IMG/VR virus record: IMGVR_UViG_3300033146_003955
Span: 64,001 to 128,000 of that record
Source of the DNA: a virus
Reading direction: 5' to 3' (one strand)
Length of the DNA stretch: 64,000 nucleotides
Positions within the stretch are counted from its first letter, which is position 1. Each line of letters starts with the position of its first letter. Made by a program: the position numbers and the translations under genes. Positions 23,734 to 63,163 of this stretch are shown here, in pieces. The notes beneath the pieces are model-generated. The model was not told the origin of the DNA. It ran no database searches and saw only the letters and a list, made by a program, of their open reading frames with translations.

Positions 23734-23963
23734 TTATGGGAAAATAATTTTTAAATATCTGTGTTTAATATTGTATGGTAATTGGTTGGCTGTTAATAGT
23801 TTAGATTCCACAAAATCGTGTGAGCCTACATTTAATCCCTTCCCACTATATCTTTTTATATTTTCACTGTCACCATAGATATGGTAGATAGCAGATGCGT
23901 AATAATAAGTATAATCTTTTTGGCTCACCACTATTTTTATAGTGGTGGGATTAATTTTTCCAT
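23734..23963 (-). pseudogene. Small protein of the C-terminal tag family, apparently frameshifted
   Basis: Coupled ATG at 23963 (MEKLIPPL*) is out of frame with VVSQKDY...YLKIIFP; the break lies in a perfect hairpin 23926-23947. Confidence 0.45.
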
Positions 23964-23964
23964 A

Positions 23965-24468
23965 TTATTCTAACGATTCTAATTCTTCAAAATTTAATTC
24001 ATCATCTGTTATTTCAATAATATTTTCATCTAAGGTTATATCATCATCTAAGGTTATATCATCATCTAAGGTTATATCATCATCTAAGGTTATATCATCA
24101 TCTAAGGTTATATCATCATCTAAGGTTATATCATCATCATCCAACATGTTTAGTAACTCCTCATCAGTTTCATCTAATAAATTATCTTCAAGACCAAGAT
24201 CTAAATCATCGTCAATATTTAAAGTACCTGATACCTCGTCAAAATCAGCTTTTTCTATCTCTGGCATCTCAATTTCTTCGACTATAATATTATCAATTAT
24301 CTCTCTTTCTTCTTCGGCCTTTCCAAAGATGGATATTTCTTGTACAATACCATCCTTTTTTATAACCTTCCCTTGCATTTTAGATGAAAATAAATCATCA
24401 GCATAAGCCGCTTCAAATTCAGTCTCAAACTTTATTGTTAAATTCCCATCGTCTAATATAAATCTCAT
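23965..24468 (-). CDS. Very acidic protein with DDDITL repeats
   Basis: AGGAG SD; D/E-rich C-half. Confidence 0.75.
   Translation of the reverse strand: MRFILDDGNLTIKFETEFEAAYADDLFSSKMQGKVIKKDGIVQEISIFGKAEEEREIIDNIIVEEIEMPEIEKADFDEVSGTLNIDDDLDLGLEDNLLDETDEELLNMLDDDDITLDDDITLDDDITLDDDITLDDDITLDDDITLDENIIEITDDELNFEELESLE
24026..24133 (-). repeat. Perfect 18-nt tandem repeat x6
   Basis: tcatctaaggttatatca. Confidence 0.95.
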
Positions 24469-24480
24469 ATTTTTTCTCCT

Positions 24481-25035
24481 TTATAGTTCCCAACTTTTCT
24501 CAATTTTATCTTCATAATCTTTACAGTTACCTTGTAAATAATCTTCAACAAAACAACAAAGCGCGTGACTGTCAACTACGTTATCGTCGAATACTGTTTG
24601 TTTCTTAATTCTTTTAAAGAATGGTATATTAGCACCTCTCTTATTTGCTTCTTCTATCATAGCCAATTTGTCTGCATTACCACTACCTGTATAATATTTT
24701 TTTAAAGTCTTAGGCGGAATGATGATAAATTTAATATCTTTAGTGAAGTATAAGGCCCGGAGCATATGGGACAAGCCTCCAAGTTCAAATAAAGTATTTC
24801 CGCGACTCGCATATGACATACCCTCCATACAAATATAGTCTGGCTTATATTTCTTTATAATCTCAGTTATATCTTCAACTATTTTTATTAATCGTTTCGT
24901 ATAATCAATAGTTGGGGTTTTTGTATTTTTAGTTTTAGACGATGATATTAAATAATAATATTCTTCACCTTCAGAAAAAACTGTTATGCCACTACCAACA
25001 AGACTTTGATCAATACCCATATATATATTACTCAT
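24481..25035 (-). CDS. ruvC: RuvC-like Holliday junction resolvase
   Basis: MGIDQSL..SG, ICMEG, LKKYYTGSGNADK, DNVVDS. Confidence 0.85.
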   Translation of the reverse strand: MSNIYMGIDQSLVGSGITVFSEGEEYYYLISSSKTKNTKTPTIDYTKRLIKIVEDITEIIKKYKPDYICMEGMSYASRGNTLFELGGLSHMLRALYFTKDIKFIIIPPKTLKKYYTGSGNADKLAMIEEANKRGANIPFFKRIKKQTVFDDNVVDSHALCCFVEDYLQGNCKDYEDKIEKSWEL

Positions 25036-25942
25036 CTTTTATCCTTATAAATTTATATTCAGGTAAATACTTTTCTATTTGATGTTATCTTACTATATCT
25101 TTTTCACAAAGATTTCCACTTATATCAAAATGTTTTTTCTCATCATATTCCATAATCAATTTCATATCATGGTTTATATAATCTACCCAATAACCTAATT
25201 CTTTTATATGATACTCACCACCGTTTCTAGCATGTTGACCATTCGTATTATTATCTTTATCGAATTGTTCGAAATGGTTACAAGCTTTGGGATTCCAATT
25301 TGGTACTAATTGTTGTCCTAGTGTCAATCTTTCCTCAACTGTTTTTATAGCTTTTAACCTTCTATTTTTAATTTCTTCAGCAGATTGAATTCTAACTTTT
25401 CCTTTTTTTGCTTTGCTCATTTTCATTCTTGTTTCTTTAGAAAATGGTTTTCTTTTTGTTCCTTTCATTGCATCCATAGCGCACTTATGACAACAATATT
25501 TACTATCATTACGTTTTTTGTATGATATTTCATATTCATTTTTGCAATAATTACATATCAATTTAACATCAGGACTAGGCTTTTTATTTGATTTACATTT
25601 TATACGCATTTCCTGCGCTTTATCTCCATACAACTCTTCAAATGTTTTACCTTTACTCCAAGGAATATTACCAATATGACTTTTACTCCTCACCTTTCTT
25701 GATTCCGCCGACATTTCTAAATCTTTTTGCCATTCATTAAAACAATTTTTACTACAATATTTACGGTCTCTTTTTTTGTATTCTACACTAAAAATTATTC
25801 CACAATAATTACATTTTATTTTTACAGGGCTATGAGCTTTAGCTTTATTTCTGTGTGTTGTTGCACAAGACTTACTACAAAATTTTTGATTTTTATAATA
25901 TGTTTTAAACTCTTTATTACATTCTAAACAAACTTTTATCAT
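25028..25942 (-). pseudogene. Zn-finger/NUMOD3/Vsr-like homing endonuclease with a premature TAA at 25085-25087
   Basis: CxxC..KFCS repeats, SKETRMKMS, GYWVDY..EYDEKKH; frame continues after the stop as HQIEKYLPEYKFIRIKDE. Confidence 0.7.
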
Positions 25943-26009
25943 ATAATTATCTTGTATATATTTTTAAAATTGTCATGTTTCTACTTCTAAAGTAAGTGCT
26001 TCCCAATCA

Positions 26010-26246
26010 CTAATACGGATGGAAGCTTATTACTTCTATAAACCTTGTAAATATAAATTTTATTCCATCTGCAGGAAGATAAGTAGTTTCGTAAGATAGA
26101 ATTTTCTCATCTCCAACTTTATTATTGTCCCCGTGTATAATATGAGTTATTATTCCTTCTATTTCAACACGGCCAAACCTCTCTATTTTCTTATCATCTG
26201 TTTCGATAATATAAGCTTCACCTAAGAACATTACAAACTTTTCCAT
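26010..26246 (-). CDS. Small protein, C-terminal tag family (GIKFIF)
   Basis: TAATG coupling. Confidence 0.6.
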   Translation of the reverse strand: MEKFVMFLGEAYIIETDDKKIERFGRVEIEGIITHIIHGDNNKVGDEKILSYETTYLPADGIKFIFTRFIEVISFHPY

Positions 26247-26428
26247 TATTCAAATACCAACCTTATTATTTTTCTGAAAGCTTCAGGCTTATCAACTTCA
26301 ATCTTTGCTTTTAAATTTTTCAGCAGAGTAATATACGCAAAAAATTTATATTCTATATTATCTTTGTAAAGTGTTGATATTATGATCATTTTATAAAGAT
26401 AATATAGAATATAAATTTTCAAAATCAC
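26246..26428 (-). CDS. Small protein, C-terminal tag family (KIIRLVFE)
   Basis: Start uncertain; shared C-terminal motif. Confidence 0.45.
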   Translation of the reverse strand: MILKIYILYYLYKMIIISTLYKDNIEYKFFAYITLLKNLKAKIEVDKPEAFRKIIRLVFE

Positions 26429-26445
26429 TATATTAGGAGAATTAA

Positions 26446-26727
26446 ATGCCTAAAATTGATTTACAATCTCAAATAGTTTTAACTGTAGTTGGCCTACTTG
26501 TAACAGCTGCTCTTGTATTTGTTGGTATATCATTCTTGGGAATGCAAGATGATCTTCAACAACTAACTGTCGACGTAACAACTTTGCAGTCTTTACAAAA
26601 AACGTCAGCGATAGCCAATTCTAATGCTTTTAAAAATGCAAATGAGGATTTGATTGCTGTAAAAACTGATTTGAAATTAGATATACGAGAGTTGAAAAAT
26701 GATATAAAATATTTATGGAGGAGATAA
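26446..26727 (+). CDS. Single-TM coiled-coil protein (possible lysis component)
   Basis: TAAAGATAA at 26394, AGGAG SD, N-terminal TM. Confidence 0.6.
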   Translation: MPKIDLQSQIVLTVVGLLVTAALVFVGISFLGMQDDLQQLTVDVTTLQSLQKTSAIANSNAFKNANEDLIAVKTDLKLDIRELKNDIKYLWRR

Positions 26728-27248
26728 TGAGAATACTATTTATTATATTGTTAATCATACTGCCTATTTTTGTATTTTCTCAGCAAATTGTAGAAGAAGA
26801 TTTAATAGATGAGTTAAATTTTTGGAATTCAAATTTAAATTTTGAGTATAAAAACAATACTCTTTATATATATGATTATTATTCAAGTGATTACAGCGAT
26901 GTATCTCTTGGTTTATCAGATATCTTAGAAGGTATAACATATTATTTGAAAGATATTCAAATAGATTTAAAAAATTTAGATTTAAATGTTGAATATACAT
27001 GGGGAAGCCGTAATTATAGTAATGATGACTTCATTATGGAAAAATTGCATATAGATCCAGAATGGTTGATCGCCTACACTTTAACCGAAAGTAGAAAAGA
27101 TAAACAAGCAATGTTTGATGAGGTATTAAATCCAATATATAGAAGCATAAAAGATGACTTTCAGATATATCAGTCTCAACAAGTAAAACAAGCCATTTTT
27201 AATTTAAAAGAAGTTCAAATTTTACCTAAAGATGATTTTGAACGATAA
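26727..27248 (+). CDS. Secreted/periplasmic protein
   Basis: MRILFIILLIILPIFVFS signal peptide; GGAGGAG SD. Confidence 0.65.
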   Translation: MRILFIILLIILPIFVFSQQIVEEDLIDELNFWNSNLNFEYKNNTLYIYDYYSSDYSDVSLGLSDILEGITYYLKDIQIDLKNLDLNVEYTWGSRNYSNDDFIMEKLHIDPEWLIAYTLTESRKDKQAMFDEVLNPIYRSIKDDFQIYQSQQVKQAIFNLKEVQILPKDDFER

Positions 27249-27323
27249 CACAGAAATTAAGTATAATAAATTTAATTTTTTCTCTATCTTTAATATTTTC
27301 ATCTTTAGAGCATAATTTAATAT

Positions 27324-28025
27324 ATGAGAAAGAATAAATACTCGAAATCAAAGATAGACACGTTCAAGAAATGTAAACTTCAATATAAAAAAAAGTATAT
27401 TGAGAAAATTAAATTGCCTCAGCCTCATTCTGATGACCTTCAATTCGGCTCCTGGATTCATAAATGTTTAGAAATTTACAACCCAGATGCAGACAACAAG
27501 ATTGAAGTTATTAAACTTTTTAAACATTTCGATATTAGAGGGAAAGCTTATATTAATGCCATCCCTCAAACTCTTAGAAATGCTATAGCATATACTAAGA
27601 AAAATTGGAAATACCCTAGAGAGAATGAGCAAACTATAACTTATGAAGGGAATGAGATTACAATCACTGGTATTGTAGACTTAAAAATGGAGCAGAAAAA
27701 TGGTTTAGTTGTTGTCGATTATAAATCATCAAAAACTGCTAATCCATGGCGTCATGAATATCAAATGAAGATGTATACATACATGTTTATGAAAATTGAA
27801 AGTCTCCCAGCTGAAAAAATACATTCAGTTATATACTATCCTCGAATTGATGATTACAATCATTATAATTTTACTACAATAGATATGAAATTATTTGAAC
27901 AAGAACTCATGCAAGATATTGTGGATATAGAAACTACAAAAGTTTATCCTGCTTCACCTGGTTACCATTGTAGATGGTGTCCTTACCTTGATACTGAACA
28001 TTGTTCTAAAGGTCAAAAGCCTTAA
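27324..28025 (+). CDS. Cas4/AddB-like PD-(D/E)xK exonuclease with Fe-S cysteines
   Basis: S.S.I..F..C, GSWIH, GIVD, VDYKS, QMKMY, CRWCPY...C; GCATA-N9-ATG. Confidence 0.85.
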   Translation: MRKNKYSKSKIDTFKKCKLQYKKKYIEKIKLPQPHSDDLQFGSWIHKCLEIYNPDADNKIEVIKLFKHFDIRGKAYINAIPQTLRNAIAYTKKNWKYPRENEQTITYEGNEITITGIVDLKMEQKNGLVVVDYKSSKTANPWRHEYQMKMYTYMFMKIESLPAEKIHSVIYYPRIDDYNHYNFTTIDMKLFEQELMQDIVDIETTKVYPASPGYHCRWCPYLDTEHCSKGQKP

Positions 28026-28026
28026 A

Positions 28027-28206
28027 ATGGATTTAGCTTTAGCTGCTAAACATTTGTTACTTGGTAGAAATTGTTTTAATTGTAATTATTATAAAACTAA
28101 AAAAAGTAAATGTTCACATGATTTAGATATTTGTATTTTTGCTAACGGGCAAGGTGACAAATTACCTAGCGCAAATATTTGTAAATATTGGAGTAGATAT
28201 GAATGA
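28027..28206 (+). CDS. AK-x-LL-G-xx-CxxC family small protein
   Basis: AAKHLLLGRNCFNC...CKYW. Confidence 0.65.
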   Translation: MDLALAAKHLLLGRNCFNCNYYKTKKSKCSHDLDICIFANGQGDKLPSANICKYWSRYE

Positions 28207-28470
28207 AGACAAATTAGCAAAAAAATTATTGGAGAACAATATTCCTCCCCAATATATTCCTTATTATGAGATAATAGGTGATAGAAAATTAACATTACCA
28301 GTGAAAGGTGCAGTCATCATATTAGCAGAAAATAATGGATTTGATGTACGATTTATAAAAATTGATACAGTAATAACGGATGATTTTCATCCTTATAGAT
28401 TAAATATACATATAGATTAAATATACATATAGATGAAAATCATAATTTAAAAAATATAACTATAGGATAG
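28199..28470 (+). pseudogene. I78/potato-type serine protease inhibitor-like protein truncated by a 17-nt duplication
   Basis: VRFI...VITDDFHPYRLNIHID*; removing one repeat restores ENHNLKNITIG*. Confidence 0.6.
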
Positions 28471-28473
28471 GAG

Positions 28474-29178
28474 TTGAAAATGGTTAGAAGTTACCCGGCA
28501 CTTACCACCCTTATACGTGGTAGATTAAATAGAGACATATCTGATGCACAATTTTTTCTTCATGAAAAAGGTATTGCACTTCTGATAGATGATGAAAATC
28601 TTTATTCTCTTAAAACAGAAAATGATGGTCATAAGTCTGAACTTTTTGAAGTTTGTTACAAAGGTTTAATATATCGTGGAACTGAATTGGTGTGTTTTAA
28701 GGGACCAAGAGTACCTGAAATGTCTCTCAAAGAAGCTCAAGAGAAAGATACAATAGTTTGGAATGACAAGACAGTTTTTGCTGAAAAAATTAAAGGTAAA
28801 AAAATGTATATGTATTGGGATTACGAGAAAGAAGATTGGCAATTTGCAGATGAGAATAAAGCCATAAATAAATCTTATGGTGATATTTTAAGAAATAAAC
28901 TTTATAACATCATGGGAATTGAATATTTTTTTACTTACGTTTTTATAATATCTGAAAATAATATTAAACATGAAACTGGCATTTATCTTGAAACAATGTA
29001 TGATAACAAAAAAGGTAAAGAAATAAAATGGGATAGAGTATGGAATTATGCTATGCGTTTAAAAGCAAAACCTGTTATGTATTATAACTTCGAAGGTTTT
29101 GATAAACTTGAAGAAAGCGATTTCCCTATATATGTATTAGATATCTCTGGAAATAGAATATTATTAACAAAGATGTAA
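28474..29178 (+). CDS. Divergent T4 Rnl1-like RNA ligase-fold protein
   Basis: CYKGLIY..ELVC, then EKIKG at the expected motif I (KxDG) position, followed by MYWD...WQFA. Confidence 0.45.
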   Translation: MKMVRSYPALTTLIRGRLNRDISDAQFFLHEKGIALLIDDENLYSLKTENDGHKSELFEVCYKGLIYRGTELVCFKGPRVPEMSLKEAQEKDTIVWNDKTVFAEKIKGKKMYMYWDYEKEDWQFADENKAINKSYGDILRNKLYNIMGIEYFFTYVFIISENNIKHETGIYLETMYDNKKGKEIKWDRVWNYAMRLKAKPVMYYNFEGFDKLEESDFPIYVLDISGNRILLTKM

Positions 29179-29179
29179 A

Positions 29180-30259
29180 ATGAGTTTAAAAAAAACAACT
29201 AAAGAATTTATAAAAGAAGCAAAAGAAATACATGGTGGGAAGTATGATTATTCTTTAGTTAATTATAAGACAGCTATAACTAAAATTAAAATAATATGTT
29301 TAAAACATGGAACGTTTGAACAAATTCCAAATAGTCATTTAAACGGTAGCGGCTGTCCTAAATGTTCACATAAAGGAATTAAATATACAACTGAAGAATT
29401 TATAATAAAAGCAAAAGAAATACATGGTGGGAAGTATGATTATTCTTTAGTTGATTATATTGATAATAAAACTAAAATTAAAATAACATGTCCAAAACAT
29501 GGAGTATTTAAAAAAAGACCTAATTTACATTTATCCAAAAAACAAGGTTGTCCAAAATGTATGGGTAGAAATCGAACAACTGAAGAATTTATAATAAAAG
29601 CAAAAGAAATACATGGTGGGAAGTATGATTATTCTTTAGTTGATTATATTGATAGCACGACTAAAATTAAAATAATATGTCCGAAGCATGGGGTATTTGA
29701 ACAAACACCAGGCAATCATTTTTTAGGTAAAGAATGTTATAACTGTGGCAAATTTAAAATTAAATATACAACTGAAGAATTTATAATAAAAGCAAAAGAA
29801 ATACATGGTGGGAAGTATGATTATTCTTTAGTTGATTATATTGGTAGCACAACTAAAATTAAAATAATATGTCCGAAGCATGGGATATTTAAACAAAAAG
29901 CATCAAGTCATTTAAATGGTAATGGTTGTCCTACTTGTAATAGTTCCAAAGGTGAAATAGAAATTATTAATTATTTAAATTATAAAAATATAAATTATGA
30001 AAGAGAATATAAATTTGATGATTGTAAAGATAAAAGAGTTTTACCTTTTGATTTTTATATAAAAGATTTAAATATTCTTATTGAATTTGACGGAGATCAA
30101 CATAGAAAAGCTATAAAATTTTTTGGTGGAGAAAAAATGTTTAAAGATAGACAACGAAAAGATGTTATAAAAACTAAATATGCAAAAGATAACAATATAC
30201 AATTAATAAGAATAAATTGTGTAAAAGATATTAAAACGCTACTTACATCAATGGAATAA
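29180..30259 (+). mobile_element. Homing endonuclease-like gene, paralog of 17836 (4 repeats)
   Basis: EEFIIKAKEIHGGKYDYS repeats; identical CKDKRVLPFDFYIK. Confidence 0.85.
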
Positions 30260-30260
30260 T

Positions 30261-31945: not shown

Positions 31946-31955
31946 AATATATTTC

Positions 31956-32019
31956 ACTCCATTTTTACTATATTTTGGTAATTATATTAAGATAATAGTA
32001 TATAATAAATAAGTGGAGT
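31956..32019 (+). promoter_or_regulatory. AAGATAA motif within an RBS-occluding hairpin
   Basis: actccattt (31956-64) pairs with aagtggagt (32011-19); AAGATAA at 31989. Confidence 0.6.
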
Positions 32020-32024
32020 AAAAT

Positions 32025-32426: not shown

Positions 32427-32481
32427 TATCTCTTAATTTATATAAGATAAATAAAACTAAGTAAAAGGTAAAAACAATTAA

Positions 32482-33824: not shown

Positions 33825-33845
33825 TTATGAATAATCTTTAAGGAG

Positions 33846-50937: not shown

Positions 50938-52548
50938 ATGATATTAAAAGTAAATGGTATAACAGTTGAAACGAAAATAAAATATACAACTGTTAGAGGT
51001 GCTAATTCCATTAAAATAAATGGAAATTATATATTAAAAAAAAATGATAATATAATATTTAAATGTTGTATATGCAATAAAGAAAAAAATCAAAAATTTA
51101 GATTTAAACCCAAATTTATAGAAGATGATATAATATGTGATTCATGCAATAGAAGTATAAATAATCCATTTAAAAGAAATGATGTTAAAGAAAAGATCAA
51201 AAATACAAATTTAAAACGTTATAACGTTAAAAATTCAATGCAAAATAAAGAGATATTAAAAAAAGCACAACAAAAACAAAAAGATAATAATAATGGTGTT
51301 CTAGCCTTCAATTCAGATAAACAAAAAAAAACCTTAAAAAAAAAATATGGTAATGAAGTAATATTTAAAACGCAACACTTTAAAGAAAAAACAAAAAAAA
51401 CTTTATTAAAAAATTATGGCGTTGAAAATCCAATGAAATCTGATATTATTAAAAATAAAACCAAATCTACAATGAAAAAACGATATGGAAACGAAATAAT
51501 ATATAAATCTATTTATTTTAAAAAAAAATCTAAAAAAACAATACAAGAAAGATATGGTGTAGATTATATTATACAAAATCCCGAAATTAAAGAAAAAATA
51601 GAAAATACCATGATTACGCGTTATGGATCTAAAACATTTTTAACATCAAATAGATATATTGCTATGGGAATTAATACTAATACATCTAAAACTCATTATG
51701 AAATAATTTCATTTATTAAAAGTTTTAATATAACAAATATTAAAATAAATAATAGAAAAATTATATCTCCTATGGAACTAGATATTTATTTGCCTGATCA
51801 TAATATCGCTATTGAATTTGATGGTCTTTACTGGCACTCTGATAAGTTTAAAGAGAAAAACTATCATATCAATAAAACCCTTCAGTGTGAGGCTAAAAAC
51901 ATTCATCTTATACACATCTTTGAAGATGAGTGGGCTAACAAGAGAGGAATAATTGAAGCTCGGTTAAAAAATCTTTTAGGTTTAAACTCTAAAAGAATTG
52001 GAGCCAGAAAAACTATAATAAAAGAAATTAGCCCTAAAGTTAAAAATGCTTTCTTAGAAAAACATCATATACAAGGAGAAGATAAAAGTAATATTAAGTT
52101 GGGTGCTTATTATAGGAACGAATTAATTGGTGTTATGACTTTTTCTAAACCTAGAATATTTATGAGCAAAAAAGCTAAAGATGGAAGTTGGGAACTTAGT
52201 AGATTTGCTACTATACCGGATACATATACACCAGGATTAGCTTCTAAAATGCTTAAATATTTTGAGAGAGGTTGGAATCCTAAGCTGATAGAATCATTTG
52301 CAGATAGAAGATGGAGCCAAGGTAATTTATATAAAAAATTAGGTTTTGAACTTGCAAGTCAAACTAATCCTAATTATTATTATTTTAAAAATTTAAAACG
52401 ATGGCATAGATATAAATTTAGAAAATCAGAACTTACCAAGTTTGATAATTATACACCAGAAAAGACTGAGAAAGAAATAATGAACGAAGCCGGATGGGGT
52501 AGAATATATGATTGTGGTAATTATAAATTTACAAAAGATTATTTTTAG
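50938..52548 (+). mobile_element. Hef-like homing endonuclease
   Basis: KxYGVENP repeats, ELDIY..IAIEFDGLYWH, IHIFEDEW, C-terminal WELSRFA..ADRRWSQG..IYDCG. Confidence 0.85.
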
Positions 52549-52765
52549 TCGTCTCTATTAAAAGGATTTGTTCTATAAGTTCAGACGGGAGCCATATACT
52601 TTCTTTTTTAGGAAAAACTGTTTCAACGTTCCACACACTTTTCTCAACAACCCAGCCATTCTTTTCTTGTTCAAATTCATAAGATATAATTGTTTTATTA
52701 TCATCGCTTCGCATCTCAGCTTTATGAACCGTTTTCTCTTCTTTGCTCAACTTATATTTACCCAT
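52529..52765 (-). CDS. Hypothetical protein
   Basis: 78-aa ORF convergent with the HEG. Confidence 0.55.
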   Translation of the reverse strand: MGKYKLSKEEKTVHKAEMRSDDNKTIISYEFEQEKNGWVVEKSVWNVETVFPKKESIWLPSELIEQILLIETTKNNLL

Positions 52766-52780
52766 ATAAATAACTATGCT

Positions 52781-53632: not shown

Positions 53633-53651
53633 TTAATACTCCATTACTTTT

Positions 53652-53879
53652 TTACAATGTCCAAGACTTTATTTTTTCGCTTAATAATAATTTAATTATT
53701 TGCCGATTTAAATCTGAATCACCCGTTATAGGATCTTCAAACTTAAAATGATATTCTTTTTTTTCATATACTTCATTGGTTTCAGGATAAAACAACAAAC
53801 ATTTAATTATTTTATCCTCCAATATTTCTATAGGAACTACCAAACCATCAAACGTATAAATTCTATACAATTCAATCAT
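53652..53879 (-). CDS. Small protein, C-terminal tag family (RQIIKLLL)
   Basis: GGAG SD, ATGA overlap. Confidence 0.6.
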   Translation of the reverse strand: MIELYRIYTFDGLVVPIEILEDKIIKCLLFYPETNEVYEKKEYHFKFEDPITGDSDLNRQIIKLLLSEKIKSWTL

Positions 53880-54061
53880 ACTAACTCCAGCTGCTCTTTA
53901 AATAACATCTTAATTAATGCCCCTTTATTTAGGTTATCTTCTAACTCCCCTTCCAATACTTCTTCAATTTCTTCTTTTATTTTTGTATGAGCAACTTTCG
54001 CTATCTTCTCGCCAAATAATAACTCGTATTCTCTTATAATATAGGTAAAATTAGTAATCAT
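53876..54061 (-). CDS. Small protein, C-terminal tag family (LIKMLFKE)
   Basis: Coupled ORF. Confidence 0.55.
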   Translation of the reverse strand: MITNFTYIIREYELLFGEKIAKVAHTKIKEEIEEVLEGELEDNLNKGALIKMLFKEQLELV

Positions 54062-54076
54062 ACTGAATAAGTTTAA

Positions 54077-56203
54077 TCATATTCGCCTCTTAACTATTGC
54101 CCAGGCTTGTGGTCTATCAGCATCATTATCATGACCATCCATATAAAAACTTAATATATCATTTTCATTAAAATTTACATTTAAATTATTAACACTATTT
54201 TTATAATCATTATTATAATATACTCGTGCACTAGTATTATTACCATTTTTTCTAATAACAATTGAATTTGAACAATTATCATCATTACTCACAATACTCA
54301 TGGCTACTATAACACCATCCCATGGAGCACACCACCCAATATGATTATTCATTGATGTTCCATTAAACATTTTTAAATATTTATCTTTAACATTATTAGC
54401 GTTATATCCACCACCAATTGTCATACTGAATGTAGATACCCAACTACTTCTTGTAGCATCGTATAAATATAATTCACCATCTCTTATACATAACTCTCCA
54501 CCACTTAACCATCGATTAGGAGTGTATCCAAGAGGTGGAAGTTTAATAGGTGCAAATCCTCTAGACGCATTAAATTCTACACTTCCTGCATCTACACTTA
54601 TTATTCTACCTTCACCATTACTATACATATTGTTATTATCATAAGCATCATCTAGACTAATCAATCCACCACCTAAATCGCTATGTGTATGGAGCCCAGC
54701 AGCATCGCTTCCATTTGTTAGGGTCTCCAATTCAACTCCTGTCACGTTAGTTGTAGAATCATTAGAGCTAATTCTATTATAATCTATCCCATTTAATAAA
54801 TTATCGGTTTGTGTTTTTGAATAATACCTTTCATCATGATTATGAAATACATTAGCATAAGTATCTAGTAAATCATCAGTTTCATCTTCTGTATAATATC
54901 TCCCATCATGGTTATGAAGATCGGTATCTTGTCCAGATGTTAATTCATCTGCACTATCTTGTGATATCGGATGTGATACATTAGTAACTGGTGGGGAAGT
55001 ATTATTTGCCAACCATATCCATCCGTTAACTTCATCATTCCAAGTATAAAAACCTTCATCGTACGTTATACCATAAAAAGATCCATTGATTATAGTTTGA
55101 AAATCATTTTCAGATAATTCACCTTCTTGTAAGAAAAATTCATCTATTTTAATTGAATCATCAGGGCCATGTTGTTCTTCTATATTATATCCAAAATAAA
55201 GATAATCACTTTCCTGCACAATTGTTCCACCATCATTAAGAGATTCTTCTTTATTTAAGATACCATTTATATAAATCTTTACCATTTTAGATACATTTGA
55301 ATAAGAAAAACCTATATGTGTCCATGTATCTTTAGATATTTTTGTTGGTGCATGAGGTTCTTTGTGACCTTCATCCGTACCAACCCAAAATTTAGGTCTT
55401 CCATCTTTTAGCAAAAGATACATTCCTTTTTTAGGACCTTTTTTCCACATATGAAATAAAGGATTATACTTCTCATAATGATCTACAGTACTATAAATCC
55501 ACATTCCACCTGATATTTCTCCTGGTGTAAATGACTTAACTGTCGGCGAATATCTAGCCCTCTCATCATCTGTTCCATCACCATCCCAGCCACGAAATGA
55601 AACGGCTTGATTTACTCTACCTTCAGACCAAACTGCAATATTACTATTAATAGTTTCAGTATAATTCCCAACTTCATCATCGAAATTACCATCTAATTTA
55701 GTGAAAAGAATAGTATCATCATTTATGGTGTATTGACCATCATTATTACCGTCACCACTTGTACCTCTAACAATCCATATTTCACCTTCAACTCCAGTTG
55801 CTGGTAAATTATCCTTATAATCAACAGCACCCTTTATACCAAATGCAGCAGCATTAGAAATCATCCCATCAATTTGTGCTTGTGTATAATATGCCGAACT
55901 ATGATCATGTATCAAAGGCGCTTTTTCACTTAACAAATTATCAGTTTCAGTAATATTATAGTAACCAGATAAATCTGTATTTAAACTTAAATATATTATG
56001 GCTTCTTCCGGAATTAAATCGTTAGAACCATTATTTACAACAATTGAATTATCGTTTATTAAAGAAATTAACTCGGTAGAATCTTCAAACTCTAATATAT
56101 CAGTCCAATTAAGAGTAATTTCTTCTCCTACTCCAACTCTTATTCCTAAATTGGCTAGTTTTATTTCTGATGCAGTTGTATTTTTTAAAATTACTATATT
56201 CAC
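54077..56203 (-). CDS. Tail fibre/adhesin with LamG domain
   Basis: HxHxxRYY motifs, WTHIGFSY..KIYING LamG; C-terminal domain paralogous to 56469. Confidence 0.8.
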   Translation of the reverse strand: MNIVILKNTTASEIKLANLGIRVGVGEEITLNWTDILEFEDSTELISLINDNSIVVNNGSNDLIPEEAIIYLSLNTDLSGYYNITETDNLLSEKAPLIHDHSSAYYTQAQIDGMISNAAAFGIKGAVDYKDNLPATGVEGEIWIVRGTSGDGNNDGQYTINDDTILFTKLDGNFDDEVGNYTETINSNIAVWSEGRVNQAVSFRGWDGDGTDDERARYSPTVKSFTPGEISGGMWIYSTVDHYEKYNPLFHMWKKGPKKGMYLLLKDGRPKFWVGTDEGHKEPHAPTKISKDTWTHIGFSYSNVSKMVKIYINGILNKEESLNDGGTIVQESDYLYFGYNIEEQHGPDDSIKIDEFFLQEGELSENDFQTIINGSFYGITYDEGFYTWNDEVNGWIWLANNTSPPVTNVSHPISQDSADELTSGQDTDLHNHDGRYYTEDETDDLLDTYANVFHNHDERYYSKTQTDNLLNGIDYNRISSNDSTTNVTGVELETLTNGSDAAGLHTHSDLGGGLISLDDAYDNNNMYSNGEGRIISVDAGSVEFNASRGFAPIKLPPLGYTPNRWLSGGELCIRDGELYLYDATRSSWVSTFSMTIGGGYNANNVKDKYLKMFNGTSMNNHIGWCAPWDGVIVAMSIVSNDDNCSNSIVIRKNGNNTSARVYYNNDYKNSVNNLNVNFNENDILSFYMDGHDNDADRPQAWAIVKRRI

Positions 56204-56206
56204 AAT

Positions 56207-56467
56207 TTAAACTCCATTAAAAACTTCTTGTATTATTTGTTTTTGAGCATCTTCCATAGTATTACATCTATCTTTGGCTTTAATTTTTTCATCAAAATCA
56301 TTATTAAGCCAATATAATAAGTCATCTTCTTCATCACTCATATATGTATATACATCAATTATATTATTAGTAATAACCCTGTTACTTATAGTATCATAGT
56401 TAATAATAAATATATCAGCATATTCTATTCCATCTGGCTTTAAAACGTACCCAGTATATTTAATCAT
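56207..56467 (-). CDS. Small protein, C-terminal tag family (KQIIQEVF)
   Basis: Sits between two fibre genes. Confidence 0.6.
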   Translation of the reverse strand: MIKYTGYVLKPDGIEYADIFIINYDTISNRVITNNIIDVYTYMSDEEDDLLYWLNNDFDEKIKAKDRCNTMEDAQKQIIQEVFNGV

Positions 56468-56468
56468 A

Positions 56469-59400
56469 TTATTTTCTCCATGCCAATTCTATTGTAAAGA
56501 CAGCATCATGTAATGCAGCTCCTTGATTAGTAACATATACACTAATATAATCACCTTCATTTAAATCATAATTTAAGGAATTATTTAATACTTTACCGTT
56601 TGAATCTGTATTTAAAGAGAAGGCTAAATTACCATTTACTTCTACCTGTATTTCTTTATTATTTATTGAATTAGAGGTTTCTACTGATACTCCTAATATA
56701 CATGCATCATGCAACATTTTAATTCCTGATCTCCAATCCTTCATCCCTCCAGGTAAAGATAACGTTGTACCATCAGAATTATTATTTTTTGCGTATACTA
56801 CCAACTTTGAAGGACTCAACCATTTATTCCTATTGCCATCATATATATAAAGTATATTATCTATAATTGATATCTGTCCTGCACCAAGATTAGTAGTTGG
56901 AGTAGCTGCTAAACTAGTTAATTCTAATGGTGCGTCTGTTGAGGTCGAAGCATTTAATTTTACCGGTCCATCATCAACTGTAATTTCTTTTCCATTATCA
57001 TATGCTTCATCTAATGTCGAGGAGGTTAAACTTACCTGATTTCTTAATTCTTGTAAAGCGTCTTGTACGTTATTAGATGTTATACCACCAATAAGAGATA
57101 CACCGATCAATGCTGCTCCCGATATTCCGGAATCTGAGTTTAGCTCACTCTCAGTATAATATCTATCGTCGTGTATATGAACTAAATTAGCTTTTCCAGC
57201 TAGAAGACTATTTATTTCATTTTCTGTATAATATCTATCGTCATGTAAGTGAGTTGTAAGTGAATAATTACTTAAAAAAGTATCTATTTCACTTTCTGTA
57301 TAATATAAATTATCATGGTTGTGTACTAAAGTGGCATATCCTAAAAGAATAGTATCAACTTCTGTTTCTGTATAATATAGAGTATTCAGTTGTCCACCAT
57401 TTAATTCTACTTTAGAATAATAATTTGATACTATTTCACTTTCTGTATAATATCTATCATCATGTGTATGGGAAGTTAAAGAATAGTTATCTAAGAGGGT
57501 ATCAACTTCTGTTTCTGTATAATACCTATCATCGTGTGTATGGGAAGTTAAAGAATAATTACTTAATAAAGTATCAACTTCTGTTTCTGTATAATACCTA
57601 TCATCATGTGTATGAGATGTCAAAGAATAGTTATCTAAGAGGGTATCAACTTCTGTTTCTGTATAATACCTATCATCATGTATATGAGATGTTAAAGAAT
57701 AATTACTTAATAAAGTATCAACTTCTGTTTCTGTATAATATCTGTCATCATGTATATGAGATGTAAGAGAGTAGTTATTTAGGAGAGTATCAACTTCTGT
57801 TTCTGTATAATATCTGTCATCATGTATATGAGATGTAAGAGAGTAGTTATTTAGGAGAGTATCAACTTCTGTTTCTGTATAATATAAACTATCATGGTGA
57901 TGTCTGCTGGATGCATCATTACCATCAACTAAATCAGATTTTTCATATCTATTTATATGTCTATAATCTTCTGTGTCTAATCCTAATAATGAATTATGAA
58001 AAATTCCTCCATTATTAAAATCCAACCAAACCCACTCTGTTCCATCCCATCTATAAAAACCTTCTTCTCTATATCCAGTAAATTGTTCATTGTTAACAAG
58101 CTCTTGTAATTGAATATCAGAATAAGTTGATTTTTCTAAAAACAATTCATCTATTTCACCATCTATTCTATGACTATAATATTTACCGATATCAAGTACA
58201 TTAGGAATATTCCCTAAAGGACCATCAAAGACACCTTGTCCTATTACTATTGCATTCTTCCATAATTTTATTGTTGTTCCATCAAATGTTATTGCTACAT
58301 GCGTCCATTCGTTTAATTTTATTCTTGAATATGATATTACTTTTATTAAAGGAGTTGTTTCGCTTTTTAACCACACTTCAACTCTACCATCTCTAATTAA
58401 CAAAGCCCAAGCATTAGCAGAAGAACCATTGCCCCAAGCATCAAATATAGACATAACCTGATCATATGAGTTAGGTTTAAGCCAACAACCAGCAGTAAAT
58501 GCCCCACCAACATTAAAATCAGGAGAGTTCGGAACTCTTACATATCCATCATTTAAATCACCTGACTGGCCGTTTCTGCCTGCTTGATAAGTTATTCCAC
58601 CACCGTGGTAACTAGTTGGGTGGCCTATCTCATCATTAATATTATTATCAAATTTCATAAAAAAAGCAGTATTACTATTTTGTACATATGCTCCACCATA
58701 GTTTGGTGGTTCAGGAATTCCATTTCTTTCCCTTACAATGTAGACATCTCCTTCGGTATTTCCAGTTAAAGGTAAATCTCTAAATTGATCATGTGAACCT
58801 TTAATTCCTTTAGACTCTAGACCAACAAGCATTGAATCAATCGTCGGCTTATCATAATAATTGTTTACAATTTCTGTTTCTGTGTAATAAAGAGTATTTA
58901 ACTGTCCGCTATCCAACTCAATTTTAGAATAATAATTAGTAGATATTTCACTTTCTGTAAAATATCTATCATCGTGAGTATGTAAAACAGTATTATTTCC
59001 ACCTGTAAGTTCAGTGTATTCTAGAGCTGTTAAATGTAGATAATCTCCAATATTTAAATTATTTAATGAATTATGATCTGAAGTACCTATATTATTAGCA
59101 AGAAAAGTCCAGCCACTTCCGTCCCATCTATAAAAACCTTCTTCATTTATGCCTACAGTTGTTTTGACTATATATATAGTTCCTATGTTTTGCGTTATAG
59201 GAAGATTACTATAAGTATCTACATATCCTTTAATTCCAAATGAAGCAGCTGCAATTATTAAATCAATTTCATTTTCTGTATAATATCTATCGTCATGTAT
59301 ATGAGATGTCAAAGAATAATTACTTAATAAAGTATCAACTTCTGTTTCTGTATAATACCTATCATCGTGTATGTGAGATGTAAGAGAGTAGTTATTTAGG

Positions 59401-60011
59401 AGAGTATCAACTTCTGTTTCTGTGTAATATAGAGTATTCAGTTGTCCATCATTTAATTCTACTTTAGAATAATAATTTGATACTATTTCACTTTCAGTAA
59501 AATATCTATCATCATGAACATGAGTTGTAAGAGAGTAATTATTTAAGAGAGTATCAACTTCTGTTTCTGTATAATATCTGTCGTCATGTATATGAGGCGT
59601 TGCAGGAAATGTTGCAGGAGTATTTACTATATTAGTCCAATCAACTTGTGATTGTCCCGGGGATAAAAGTTCCGCTTTCCTGTAATACCAATCATCATGA
59701 TGATGCCAATTACATTGAGTACCCGACGTTAAAGAAAGAGCTTGCATGTCTGTAAGATTATTTACTTCAGCACCTTCTTCTATTGTATCTAATTTATCTC
59801 CGTCTACAGATACATCTCGGCCATCTATTATCATTGTATGAGGATCTAATTGATGTTCATCATCACGCATAATAAATATTGGTATTTGCGCGTCTACTAA
59901 TTGCCCAGTATGTTGTTCTCCACCTAATTCATGGGGTGAGGACATAATATCAACCGGTAAACGGTGATTGATTGGTGGGATGCCGTCAAGTTCGTTTATA
60001 TTAAAAGGCAC
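56469..60011 (-). CDS. Long tail fibre with HxHDDRYYTETE repeats and LamG domain
   Basis: Many 22-aa repeats; WTHVAITFDG; TAAAGATAA and GAGGAG upstream. Confidence 0.85.
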   Translation of the reverse strand: MPFNINELDGIPPINHRLPVDIMSSPHELGGEQHTGQLVDAQIPIFIMRDDEHQLDPHTMIIDGRDVSVDGDKLDTIEEGAEVNNLTDMQALSLTSGTQCNWHHHDDWYYRKAELLSPGQSQVDWTNIVNTPATFPATPHIHDDRYYTETEVDTLLNNYSLTTHVHDDRYFTESEIVSNYYSKVELNDGQLNTLYYTETEVDTLLNNYSLTSHIHDDRYYTETEVDTLLSNYSLTSHIHDDRYYTENEIDLIIAAASFGIKGYVDTYSNLPITQNIGTIYIVKTTVGINEEGFYRWDGSGWTFLANNIGTSDHNSLNNLNIGDYLHLTALEYTELTGGNNTVLHTHDDRYFTESEISTNYYSKIELDSGQLNTLYYTETEIVNNYYDKPTIDSMLVGLESKGIKGSHDQFRDLPLTGNTEGDVYIVRERNGIPEPPNYGGAYVQNSNTAFFMKFDNNINDEIGHPTSYHGGGITYQAGRNGQSGDLNDGYVRVPNSPDFNVGGAFTAGCWLKPNSYDQVMSIFDAWGNGSSANAWALLIRDGRVEVWLKSETTPLIKVISYSRIKLNEWTHVAITFDGTTIKLWKNAIVIGQGVFDGPLGNIPNVLDIGKYYSHRIDGEIDELFLEKSTYSDIQLQELVNNEQFTGYREEGFYRWDGTEWVWLDFNNGGIFHNSLLGLDTEDYRHINRYEKSDLVDGNDASSRHHHDSLYYTETEVDTLLNNYSLTSHIHDDRYYTETEVDTLLNNYSLTSHIHDDRYYTETEVDTLLSNYSLTSHIHDDRYYTETEVDTLLDNYSLTSHTHDDRYYTETEVDTLLSNYSLTSHTHDDRYYTETEVDTLLDNYSLTSHTHDDRYYTESEIVSNYYSKVELNGGQLNTLYYTETEVDTILLGYATLVHNHDNLYYTESEIDTFLSNYSLTTHLHDDRYYTENEINSLLAGKANLVHIHDDRYYTESELNSDSGISGAALIGVSLIGGITSNNVQDALQELRNQVSLTSSTLDEAYDNGKEITVDDGPVKLNASTSTDAPLELTSLAATPTTNLGAGQISIIDNILYIYDGNRNKWLSPSKLVVYAKNNNSDGTTLSLPGGMKDWRSGIKMLHDACILGVSVETSNSINNKEIQVEVNGNLAFSLNTDSNGKVLNNSLNYDLNEGDYISVYVTNQGAALHDAVFTIELAWRK
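57200..57900 (-). repeat. 66-nt coding repeats (HxHDDRYYTETEVDTLLxNYSLTS)
   Basis: Seven near-identical units plus degenerate ones; second block at about 58860-59600. Confidence 0.9.
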
Positions 60012-60059
60012 GTATATTCTCCTCTACTATATTTACAATTATCTTTATAGCTGGGAAAG

Positions 60060-60305
60060 TTATTTATTGAATTTGAATAATGTATATAAAAGTTGTTTTC
60101 CTATATCTAATTCTTCTTTAGTAGGGGAATCGATAAATAATTCATCACCATCAAGTAAATTTTTCACAACACTGTTTATTCCTTGTTGAAATTTTATGAC
60201 GCCATCAAAAAAACGAATTTGTAATATAGCAGCGTGCATAACACCTATTACTTCTAACCTCTTGCTAGTACGATGGCGAAAATTACCTTGTATAATGTAC
60301 ATCAT
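60060..60305 (-). CDS. Small protein, C-terminal tag family (KQLLYTLFK)
   Basis: GAGG SD. Confidence 0.6.
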   Translation of the reverse strand: MMYIIQGNFRHRTSKRLEVIGVMHAAILQIRFFDGVIKFQQGINSVVKNLLDGDELFIDSPTKEELDIGKQLLYTLFKFNK

Positions 60306-60547
60306 ATAAATATTCCTCTAAAAATACTCTCAAATGCATTTGGATAAGCTTTAGATAAAGGTGTAGTATAATTCATAACATCTAAATCTTTTAAATAATG
60401 TATTACACACTCAGGTTCTTTAACATGAACATCACTAGCAAACACACTCATATCATAGTAAAATTCGTCGTCATCCTTCTCAGCCACAAAGCGATAGAAT
60501 TCAAATTGTTTAGCTATATGGTTATAGTGATAATACCATTCATCCAT
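60302..60547 (-). CDS. Small protein, C-terminal tag family (AFESIF/IFRGIF)
   Basis: TAATG coupling. Confidence 0.6.
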   Translation of the reverse strand: MDEWYYHYNHIAKQFEFYRFVAEKDDDEFYYDMSVFASDVHVKEPECVIHYLKDLDVMNYTTPLSKAYPNAFESIFRGIFI

Positions 60548-60792
60548 TATTTTTCGCCCTTCTCCTTATGTATTACAAATAATTCATCTCTCTTCTTATT
60601 CAGCTTGGAGGCAACATAAGCTTTTCTATTTTTAGAAGCATTCTCCCTCTCCATCTTCATAAATTCCTTTCCCACCTTATCTAAATATTTATCCAACTCT
60701 TTATCATCTATGGAGTAGTGATCTGTCCAGGTTTTATCTGGCTGAGCGAAGTGATTTTGTTGTAATTTATGTATATCTTTTGGACTTGCCAT
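60547..60792 (-). CDS. Small basic protein
   Basis: AAGGAG SD. Confidence 0.65.
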   Translation of the reverse strand: MASPKDIHKLQQNHFAQPDKTWTDHYSIDDKELDKYLDKVGKEFMKMERENASKNRKAYVASKLNKKRDELFVIHKEKGEK

Positions 60793-60802
60793 TATTTACT
60801 CC

Positions 60803-61136
60803 TTAAAATTTAAAATTCTCTGGTTCTTCAAATATGAAATATACCAAAGATCGTACTGCATCTACATCATCCTCTATTCCCTCAACATCATCATCAGAGA
60901 GGGTAAATTCAAAGTCTGCCGTTGGTGGAGAAGGTATTCTTATCCTAGCAGTCTTTCTATAATTTGCTATTCTATCTTTATGTTCTTGCGTTCTTCCATC
61001 ATAGATTAAATCAATATAATTCACTATTGTAGTCTGATTTGGTTCCTGTTCCCTTTGTTTTCTCTTGCCAACAGTAAAAGATTCATCACTCTTATAATAT
61101 GTTATTACATATGTTTATTACATATGTTTGTTCCAT
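60803..61136 (-). pseudogene. C-terminal tag family gene (SLVYFIFEE) frameshifted by a 13-nt duplication
   Basis: Removing one attacatatgttt copy (61104-61129) gives MEQTYVITYYKSDE...TTIVNYIDL in one frame. Confidence 0.65.
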
Positions 61137-61138
61137 AA

Positions 61139-61432
61139 TTAATCCACTATCTGTTCAGAGAGGCTGTATTTGAAAATGAAGTCAAAATATAATCTCTCTT
61201 TCGTTATTTTATAATTTCTCTCTATAGGAACAAGTTCATCTTCCTTCCCTTTAATTATACCATATCTTATATGCTTGCTATAGTTTATCATCCTTTCGCC
61301 TTTAATAATCCAGCCCCATTGGTTGAAATAATTATAATCATCCCATTCGCCAGACTTCTCATATACTAAAATTTTAAGAGAATCTCCTTGCTTATCGTCA
61401 TAGAGATACCAGGTACCAACTTCAAGTTTCAT
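61139..61432 (-). CDS. Small protein, C-terminal tag family (LYFDFIFK)
   Basis: MKLEVGTWY start; TAATG coupling. Confidence 0.65.
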   Translation of the reverse strand: MKLEVGTWYLYDDKQGDSLKILVYEKSGEWDDYNYFNQWGWIIKGERMINYSKHIRYGIIKGKEDELVPIERNYKITKERLYFDFIFKYSLSEQIVD

Positions 61433-61788
61433 TATTTACCAGCACCACGAATCCAATCATTCATAACTTTATTAAGAAATGCTGATCTGGAAGATACTTT
61501 ACCTTGAGGTGCTATTTTAGAATACTTCCTCTGTATTGCTTTAATGTGTTCTTCCCCAACTTTTCTAAGTTGATTACCATCCATTTTAGCATATCTTTTT
61601 AAATCTTGTGGAAGAAGGAGAGCTCTTACCTGATCATAACCCTTATTAAATTCATTAGCAATTTTTTTACTAATTTCATCACCTGAATTATTTAAAGCTC
61701 TTAATTCTTTAACGCGTGTTTTTAAATCTTTAATTTTATTATTTACTTTGTCTTCGTTTAACTGAAAATCAAACATATCTAATTTCAT
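61432..61788 (-). CDS. Small basic protein with FQLNE leader (possible head internal protein)
   Basis: AAGGAG SD. Confidence 0.65.
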   Translation of the reverse strand: MKLDMFDFQLNEDKVNNKIKDLKTRVKELRALNNSGDEISKKIANEFNKGYDQVRALLLPQDLKRYAKMDGNQLRKVGEEHIKAIQRKYSKIAPQGKVSSRSAFLNKVMNDWIRGAGK

Positions 61789-61802
61789 ATTAATTCTCCT
61801 TG

Positions 61803-61955
61803 TTATTTAAATATTCTCATTACAATTCTATACTTATTATCATTTAACATCTTAGCAACTCCGGTGTTACCCATTTTTCTAGATTTATATGTATATGTAA
61901 AACCACCAATCCATTTTATTTTATCACTAAATTCCATATATTTATCTTTATACAT
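61803..61955 (-). CDS. Small protein, C-terminal tag family (RIVMRIFK)
   Basis: Likely start MYKDKY overlapping the upstream stop. Confidence 0.45.
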   Translation of the reverse strand: MYKDKYMEFSDKIKWIGGFTYTYKSRKMGNTGVAKMLNDNKYRIVMRIFK

Positions 61956-62310
61956 TCTCAAATAAAAGATTGAAAAATTCAACTGGATTACGTTTATATT
62001 CTTTATAAAATTTCTCGTAAGCTTCTTCAAGAGAGGATTGAAAATATTCATCCCAGTCTAGCGGGTCTATATCACTAGGATGATGATATTGATTAGCAAG
62101 AATATCTGATGGTATTAAATTCTCTAATCCTTTAAGCTGGAAATTATAATCCCAATCATCTGAATCTGTTTCTATACATATACATTTAATTATAATAGGC
62201 CAAAGATATTGTTTTCCTTTTACATCTGTAGGGAATCTATCAGCAATATAATAGGTTTTCCCTTTTTCAAACTCTATTTTTTTACCATCTTTTTTAAATT
62301 TATAAATCAT
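61948..62310 (-). CDS. Small protein, C-terminal tag family (EFFNLLFE)
   Basis: AGGA SD. Confidence 0.65.
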   Translation of the reverse strand: MIYKFKKDGKKIEFEKGKTYYIADRFPTDVKGKQYLWPIIIKCICIETDSDDWDYNFQLKGLENLIPSDILANQYHHPSDIDPLDWDEYFQSSLEEAYEKFYKEYKRNPVEFFNLLFENV

Positions 62311-62433
62311 GTTTATTCCTATAGTAGTATTATGTTTATATAAGATCTATTTATTATATATTTATCAGTTCATCTCGTGAACACTAGCGTTCATAGTATG
62401 AAGACACTCTTCACTATATGAATATACGTTCAT

Positions 62434-62931
62434 TTAGTGAATATCAATTTCTATGCCTTCAACTGTACCATCAATACCTCTCGTTAAAGTTTGCGTTTCA
62501 GTTTCTATCAGTTCATCGTCATCATCATATATTTCGGATACGATTTCTACAACTGCGCCATTTATATTTCTTATTATACTTTCTTCGCGTAATATTCTCG
62601 TTTTAGCAGCATCTTTAAAGTATGTAATTTTTGATGTTTTGCCAGCAATTTTCTCTGTATCAAATATTGAATCGTCTGCTACATTATGTGCATGGGCGTC
62701 AACTTGACGGTGTGTAAAGTCATTCAACTTCTTTATATATCTAATTAGCACCTTATAAGTTATATTTACACCATCTAATTTTATAGTTAATAGAGTCGAT
62801 TCAAGATCTATAGAATTTATTATTTGTTTATCAGTAAACATTTCAATATCTAAGCTTTCTCCTGTTTCCAACTCAATTCCTAAATCATTTATAGTTATGG
62901 TGTTGGATGTTTCATTAACTAATTCAAGCAT
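62434..62931 (-). CDS. Probable virion protein with shared N-terminal anchor domain
   Basis: AGGAG then MLELVNETSNTITINDLGIEL; HAH motif. Confidence 0.65.
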   Translation of the reverse strand: MLELVNETSNTITINDLGIELETGESLDIEMFTDKQIINSIDLESTLLTIKLDGVNITYKVLIRYIKKLNDFTHRQVDAHAHNVADDSIFDTEKIAGKTSKITYFKDAAKTRILREESIIRNINGAVVEIVSEIYDDDDELIETETQTLTRGIDGTVEGIEIDIH

Positions 62932-63163
62932 TTTTTCTCCCAAATCGAAATTGCTTATTACTAAATATAGATTCAAATATCCATTCTTTAAAATATATTT
63001 CGTCTTCTACACTTAATAATTTATAGCCAGCTTCTTTTAAAGAAGTAGCTCCTCTTTTTACGTTTAAAACAGAAATTTCAATTATTCCCTCATATATATG
63101 TAAATCTTTATCCATAATATATACACTCCAATAAAGATCATCCATATCACCCCAAATTATCAT
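62924..63163 (-). CDS. Small protein, C-terminal tag family (WIFESIF)
   Basis: ATGA overlap. Confidence 0.6.
   Translation of the reverse strand: MIIWGDMDDLYWSVYIMDKDLHIYEGIIEISVLNVKRGATSLKEAGYKLLSVEDEIYFKEWIFESIFSNKQFRFGRKNA

Follow-up and report, generated by a model that had tools for sequence, protein, structure and literature searches.

Large phages carry hundreds of small orphan genes of unknown role. The closest described system in which such proteins bear a common peptide is the capsid targeting sequence (CTS) of phage T4, an N-terminal stretch of ~10 residues that is removed by the prohead protease. Clamp-binding tails, among them the bacterial QL[SD]LF motif, the PIP box and the tails of T4 gp45 clients, are short hydrophobic peptides that end in Phe near the C-terminus of different proteins and are read by one hub; their consensus, QL[SD]LF or Qxx[ILM]xx[FY][FY], begins with Gln. 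Another C-terminal peptide, the membrane-targeting sequence of MinD, is a short, transplantable amphipathic helix (PMC8155659). Here we analysed a stretch of viral DNA of 64,000 nucleotides (nt), called the window, which comprises bases 64,001-128,000 of the 158,812-bp IMG/VR record IMGVR_UViG_3300033146_003955; the record is linear and ~80% complete according to CheckV. An earlier note on the window had listed 13 hexamers of the pattern hydrophobic-hydrophobic-x-x-hydrophobic-F at or near the C-termini of small proteins and had regarded them as an address label, separate from another motif, AK-x-LL. We report that this hydrophobic-F motif recurs in an array elsewhere in the record, and we propose, tentatively, that it is a docking helix shared by its carriers. 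The hexamers are called tags below.

For the searches, the strict motif was defined by the regular expression [ILVFYM][ILVFYM]-x-x-[ILVFYM]-F in the last 20 residues, and genes encoding fewer than 130 amino acids (aa) were considered small. All 13 hexamers were recovered at the positions claimed for them, in minus-strand open reading frames (ORFs) and 1-12 residues ahead of the stop codon; 11 of them fit the strict expression, and two, GIKFIF and IIKLLL, fit only a loosened pattern. In the window the strict motif occurs in 11 of 16 small minus-strand genes (69%), in none of 26 small plus-strand genes and in none of 47 large genes. According to the earlier note, the pattern would lose its meaning if it were equally frequent in shuffled or antisense ORFs; it proved to be rarer in both. 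Antisense ORFs show it in 27 of 153 cases (18%; Fisher test against the small minus-strand genes, p = 4e-5), and 2000 residue shuffles yielded 3.1 ± 1.75 carriers (maximum 10) against 18 observed among 103 small genes genome-wide. Within the same proteins, the rate per position is 0.008-0.014 in the last 15 positions and ~0.002 elsewhere, a ~6-fold difference, and there is a specific preference for Phe at the final position of the motif (p = 5e-4). As an external control we used the first 50 kb of phage T4 (34% G+C), where 0 of 47 small genes contain the motif; hence, small proteins of AT-rich phages do not carry it in general. A composition artefact was rejected in view of the residue shuffles, the positional controls, the antisense ORFs, the rest of the genome (see below) and T4. 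The motif is non-random, far above chance and position-specific.

It is tied to region, not to strand. Among small genes, the strict motif was found in 9 of 21 in region A (genome 1-22 kb), in 9 of 13 in region B (window 52.5-63.2 kb), in 2 of 3 in region C (window 23.7-26.4 kb) and in 1 of 69 in the rest of the genome (Fisher test against the rest, p = 3.6e-6 for A and p = 2.3e-8 for B). The statement that all carriers are encoded on the minus strand is true of the 13 in the window but not in general, as the array in region A is on the plus strand. This array, at genome 2,158-10,559, together with a gene at 21,406, carries the tags VIERIF (twice), VIETIF, VIEAVF, VITYIF, IVRSIF, FIKYIF, LLTFLF and VIDLLF, accompanied by the near-variants AVMKIF, LIDILF, ALVELF and IIKILL, and its end is marked by a fibre-like protein of 3,500 aa and two further fibre genes. 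Region A lies outside the window and thus provides a replication on sequence that the first observation did not cover. The reported association with fibre genes held as well: carriers cluster beside fibre-like virion genes, which the three arrays flank or interleave.

The earlier note had also observed that none of the carriers has AK-x-LL. When all small proteins were considered, AKxL(L) was found near a terminus in only 1 of 45 inside regions A, B and C and in 24 of 95 outside, whereas the hydrophobic-F motif occurs in 19 of 45 small genes of these regions and in 2 of 95 elsewhere. The two motifs are therefore mutually exclusive and divide the small proteins by genome region.

Composition, codon and charge figures at the level of the tag were computed on 23 tags. 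The two VIERIF tags differ in 5 of 6 codons, including CGT versus AGA for Arg, and at the hydrophobic positions I, V, L and F are exchanged via first-base changes. Spacing between the Phe codon and the following start codon is not fixed (2 to 652 nt), and no DNA repeats covering the tags were found. A signal at the DNA level, i.e. a promoter, ribosome-binding site or recombination site, was considered and rejected because of the variable spacing, the absence of repeats and the differing codons. A weak bias towards NTA-TTT is left over: in 19 of 23 tags, TTT is preceded by a codon with A in the third position, compared with 52% for the same dipeptides elsewhere (p ~0.002, uncorrected for the columns examined). 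In our reading, selection acts on the motif as a protein sequence.

The carriers tile the coding strand with overlaps of start and stop codons, and Shine-Dalgarno-like sites are present at 13 of 23 carriers compared with 130 of 208 other genes. No transmembrane segments were found in them. Near-identical copies of several carriers exist on short ENA and NCBI contigs; the homologues P0002, P0010, P0012, P0015 and P0016 are encoded on ENA contigs. Known homologues are few and 58-99% identical, and only two useful distant ones came from three homologue searches plus a representative search. The tag is kept in P0004, a near-identical homologue of the protein with IIQEVF (56207..56467), and in P0010, a homologue of the protein with YFDFIF (61139..61432). 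P0015, which is 70% identical to the 120-aa protein, has FFNIIF in place of FFNLLF, while P0016, 58% identical to the L001:4174-4473 protein, has ILTFLF for LLTFLF; here LTFLFD is invariant and the residues beyond diverge. Homologues at 58-70% identity mark the carriers as conserved genes.

Apart from the tag, no sequence similarity between the carriers was detected, in line with the earlier description of their N-terminal parts as unrelated. BLAST and phmmer searches among carriers gave no links. Smith-Waterman z-scores for the parts upstream of the tag averaged -0.00 in carrier-carrier pairs, compared with 0.04 and 0.13 for other small-protein pairs, and hhalign of the two small alignments, A1 against A2, returned a probability of 0.2%. 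Net charge varies from -9 to +13 and length from 44 to 120 aa, most carriers having 60-120 aa and three neighbours exactly 81 aa. For 20 carriers there was no Pfam match at the curated cut-off and no PHROG match at E<0.001, only chance-level hits. The L001:4174 body showed weak matches to large repeat proteins, which proved uninformative. An apparent paralogy of L001 8222-8530 with the frameshifted 8534-8835 was unsupported, with a z-score of 2.1 and no BLASTP match. As a separate observation, L001 8534-8835 consists of overlapping ORFs in different frames, one of 94 aa and a 45-aa ORF with terminal VIERIF, and looks like one frameshifted gene, either broken or programmed.

Across all carriers, the distance from the tag to the C-terminus is 1-14 residues. 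The hydrophobic residues are spaced i, i+1, i+4, i+5, and the flanks of the hexamer have no clearly conserved column: at -1 to -3, K/R reaches about twice the background, and in 18 of 23 tags Phe is followed by a polar residue. The assertion that tags are usually preceded by K/R turned out to be weak (K/R at -1 or -2 in 8 of 13). Two genes of the window had been called broken; internal ATG starts preceded by ribosome-binding sites account for the overlaps in question, at 61803-62051 and 62924-63163. The carriers of the window and other features with their coordinates are compiled in Table 1. Two larger proteins end with the pattern or a near-variant as well, a 279-aa protein just upstream of region B that ends in ...IVINVFVKWRS (L003 12242-13081, minus strand; genome 128242-129081) and a 429-aa protein (genome 59290-60579) that ends in ...TVKFIFENGRDV, close to the GIKFIF at window 26049.

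Table 1. Carriers of the hydrophobic-F motif in the window and other features of the record. Positions are those of the window unless marked as genome positions; RBS, ribosome-binding site.
Position	Strand	Feature	Tag	Remarks
23734..23931	-	65-aa ORF	YLKIIF (nt 23740-23757), 1 residue before stop	GTG start, weak coding score; fills gap between two minus-strand genes
26010..26246	-	78-aa gene	GIKFIF (nt 26049-26066), loose, 12 residues before stop	G at position 1
26246..26428	-	60-aa ORF	IIRLVF (nt 26252-26269)	stop overlaps start of next gene
52529..52765	-	78-aa gene	LIEQIL (nt 52562-52579), loose variant	final L instead of F; downstream of 283-aa fibre-like gene; absent from the earlier note
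53652..53879	-	75-aa gene	IIKLLL (nt 53682-53699), loose	between fibre-like genes
53876..54061	-	61-aa gene	LIKMLF (nt 53900-53917)	directly after 708-aa fibre gene
54077..60011	-	pair of large fibre genes encoding 708 aa and, with a LamG-like domain, 1180 aa	none	interleaved with tagged small genes
56207..56467	-	86-aa gene	IIQEVF (nt 56219-56236)	between 1180-aa and 708-aa fibre genes
60060..60305	-	81-aa gene	LLYTLF (nt 60075-60092)	final array gene before 1180-aa fibre gene
60302..60547	-	81-aa gene	IFRGIF (nt 60308-60325)	
60803..61024	-	73-aa acidic gene	LVYFIF (nt 60830-60847)	
61139..61432	-	97-aa gene	YFDFIF (nt 61172-61189)	
61803..62051	-	small ORF	IVMRIF (nt 61809-61826)	probable internal ATG start gives 44-50 aa; listed 82-aa ORF overlaps upstream gene in another frame
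61948..62310	-	120-aa gene	FFNLLF (nt 61960-61977)	
62434..62976	-	short fibre-like virion protein, 180 aa as listed	none	within array; probable start is an internal ATG
62924..63163	-	79-aa gene	IFESIF (nt 62963-62980), 12 residues before stop	tail overlaps RBS and start of next gene
2572-3396 and 10448-13211		MoxR-type AAA (AAA_5) adjoining DUF2201_N metallopeptidase-like and VWA-like protein; second DUF2201_N protein after 823-aa protein		
60045; genome 77234, 86238, 95989, 96444, 98543, 106401, 136336, 149671		TAAGATAA(T/C) sites		

Low-confidence structure predictions placed the tag in a helix. The AlphaFold (AF2) model of the 120-aa protein, based on three sequences, has four N-terminal strands followed by helices, the last of which is short, comes after Asn-Pro and contains the tag (predicted local distance difference test, pLDDT, 50); for the L001:4174 protein, based on two sequences, a helix covers the tag (pLDDT 40). 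ESM Atlas models of two further carriers were equally poor, with a pLDDT of 0.54 and 0.42, and their neighbours were uninformative. The helical hydrophobic moment of the tags averages 0.43 compared with 0.28 for the background, and 43% of the tags exceed the background 90th percentile.

These observations suggest that the hexamer, [V/I/L/F]-[I/F/V/L]-x-x-[I/L/V]-F plus a polar residue, may form the core of a short amphipathic helix, which would sit 1-14 residues from the C-terminus of ~20-25 small, soluble and otherwise unrelated proteins. Such a helix would act as a common protein-protein docking handle: one phage or host partner would bind many small proteins through one hydrophobic groove, and the gene neighbourhood points to the multi-fibre or virion apparatus as a candidate partner. 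We consider it plausible, if short of probable, that the hydrophobic-F motif is a shared docking helix of this kind, and we favour this reading because a hydrophobic face is found on many bodies, the arrays stand beside fibre-like genes and the motif is complementary to AKxL(L). Several points weigh against it. In the few homologues available, the tag is not measurably more conserved than the remainder of the protein. No related genome that could show co-variation was found in the phage collection or in the viral and metagenome contigs searched. Both AlphaFold models are of low confidence, and the helix may be either free or folded onto the body. Being short and degenerate, the motif might be no more than the buried side of a terminal helix in small folds, and the strict motif is missing from some small genes of the arrays. 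The interpretation as an address label is partly supported: a non-random motif at the peptide level, unrelated bodies, clustering with fibre genes and exclusivity with AKxLL are what an address label would look like.

We rank the docking helix above a cryptic paralogue family, a somewhat unlikely account in which tandem duplicates of one small gene diverged beyond recognition and kept a C-terminal core helix that is structural and not a label. Tandem arrays, the similar gene sizes with three neighbours of identical length, and a tighter sub-consensus in region A, V-I-E-x-I/V-F in 4 of 10 carriers, speak for paralogy, as does the ongoing duplication in that region (a 78%-identical copy of a gene start with its promoter). 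Many bodies open with beta-hairpin-like stretches followed by helices, and both low-confidence AF2 models show likewise. However, none of the four comparison methods found residual similarity outside the hexamer, and charge, composition and length are very heterogeneous; at least one carrier seems entirely helical, another consists largely of acidic low-complexity sequence, and the tag stands at a variable distance from the C-terminus. The C-terminal location and the raised hydrophobic moment would also suit a peripheral membrane anchor, an amphipathic helix that targets the host inner membrane like the membrane-targeting sequence of MinD or FtsA. Yet the net charge of the tag windows is close to neutral (mean +0.5; +2 or more in only 5 of 23, +1 or less in 18 of 23), Asp/Glu occurs within or just after many tags (VIERIF, IFESIF, VIDLLF, LVYFIFEE), and the clustering with fibre genes would be left unexplained, which makes a membrane anchor improbable.

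An even lower probability is given to a degradation or handling signal, i.e. a hydrophobic C-terminal stretch read by a host AAA+ protease or by the MoxR-AAA/VWA-metallopeptidase modules of the phage. C-terminal degrons are an established principle, and the phage does encode a MoxR-type AAA protein beside a DUF2201_N + VWA-like protein as well as a second DUF2201_N protein; these modules, however, lie ~40 kb from the tagged-gene arrays on the opposite strand, and most C-terminal degrons stand at the very end of the protein, which the motif does not. Least probable of all, and largely refuted, is the absence of any function, with the motif arising passively from Ile/Phe/Leu-rich coding in AT-rich DNA, from spurious ORFs or from a DNA signal in gene ends. 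The genome has a G+C content of only 30%, almost one fifth of antisense ORF tails show the pattern and the weak synonymous NTA bias before TTT persists. Against this stand the deficit of carriers in the shuffles, the near absence of the motif from the rest of the genome (1/69) and from T4, an antisense frequency far below that of the small minus-strand genes, the lack of fixed spacing and of DNA repeats, the encoding of the same peptide by different codons and the existence of homologues at 58-70% identity.

If the docking helix is real, one peptide could serve as bait for the partner of a whole class of small orphan proteins, and ~25 of these would at once be placed in a common context, be it virion or fibre association or a common host target. 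If the carriers are a hidden paralogue family instead, they show how far tandem phage gene families can diverge. A more far-reaching proposal, which we regard as unlikely, is two-label sorting in one phage by two mutually exclusive address peptides: the hydrophobic-F helix would take ~25 fibre-linked proteins to one hub, e.g. the multi-fibre apparatus or virion, and AKxLL would direct the small proteins encoded elsewhere in the genome to another destination.

With regard to the genomic context, the genes lie on the plus strand apart from two minus-strand blocks of the window, at 23.2-26.4 kb and 52.5-64 kb. Megablast and tblastn searches of the phage collection with three queries gave no match, and no related loci were found in the viral and metagenome contigs searched. 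With the DHH phosphoesterase as query, all matches were below 30% identity and to unrelated jumbo and gut phages. The short fibre-like protein at 62434..62976 has an N-terminal N-x-T...DLG module in common with fibre-like proteins of 283, 708, 1159 and 681 aa, and three of the five members of this family are encoded in region B. Moreover, several fibre-like proteins (genome 41999-43084, 120469-124011, 144249-145385) have a common C-terminal ending, ...(I/L)E(I/L)AWR. The common N-terminal module and the common ending fit a mix-and-match multi-fibre set. The claim of two AAA/VWA modules was upheld in part: judged by domain content, one module is clear and the second is only partial, the 823-aa protein upstream of the second DUF2201_N protein being without a Pfam match. 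Signalling-type domains that are unusual for a phage were noticed at window 5844-6227 and 13263-13805, in a protein with a cREC/receiver domain (PF20274) and in one that combines a STAS domain with a zinc ribbon.

The motif TAAGATAA(T/C) recurs at a distance of 25-36 nt ahead of start codons and resembles a phage promoter -10 element (Table 1). At 60045, the promoter-like TAAGATAAT site stands between the 60060..60305 gene and the 1180-aa fibre gene. In a second layout, AAGATAATTATATG is located only ~7 nt ahead of ATG (genome 58, 3143, 48924, 89953, 99377), which would imply leaderless or near-leaderless mRNAs. Traces of duplication were observed at the beginning of the record. L001 48-130 and 3133-3215 are 78%-identical duplicates that comprise a promoter-like site and the ~20 initial codons of a 78-aa gene at 69-305; the copy at 3133-3215 stops after 22 codons and looks like a gene-start remnant of duplication in a small-gene array. 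The genes at L001 1076-1612 and 1602-2168 are 60%-identical paralogues of 178 and 188 aa that each end in KCKWSLSYG and are built of Trp/Gly-rich five-residue repeats (15-nt period; G-x-W-x-D/N-G); the one of the pair that was tested, 1076-1612, had no Pfam match.

Among the known systems, tail-fibre assembly chaperones resemble the carriers in position, as five carriers directly follow a fibre-like gene (window 52529, 53652, 53876, 56207; genome 21406). However, ~18 carriers are not directly downstream of a fibre gene, most standing in arrays upstream of fibres and not one per fibre, and no known tail-fibre chaperone family was matched among the 20 carriers in the Pfam and PHROG searches described above. 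The clamp-binding motif is not matched by the spacing of the tags, and Gln, at -1 in 2 of 23 tags, is not enriched; the carriers are orphan small proteins, whereas clamp clients are replication or transcription factors, and the phage clamp PF09116 was not found in the record, which is ~80% complete. The tail of E. coli MinD contains F-L-K-R-L-F, with the same hydrophobic spacing as the motif. The membrane-targeting helices of MinD and FtsA are cationic, whereas the tags are near neutral and often acidic, and net positive charge flanking the hydrophobic face, a feature of the MinD/FtsA type, is not typical of them.

The CTS differs from the motif in terminus and in sequence, and the motif genes sit with fibre genes and not with head genes. 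A T4 gp21-type prohead protease (PF03420) was not found in the ~80% complete record, in which control profiles were without match too. The likeness lies in the arrangement: a short conserved terminal peptide is the sole common feature of diverse small phage proteins, the genes are clustered and the cargo is variable, and here, as with the CTS, only the tag is common to unrelated cargo. The hydrophobic-F motif may thus work like the CTS without being a member of the CTS family, and its complement with a second motif hints at a wider use of short labels for phage accessory proteins than the CTS, the one textbook case.

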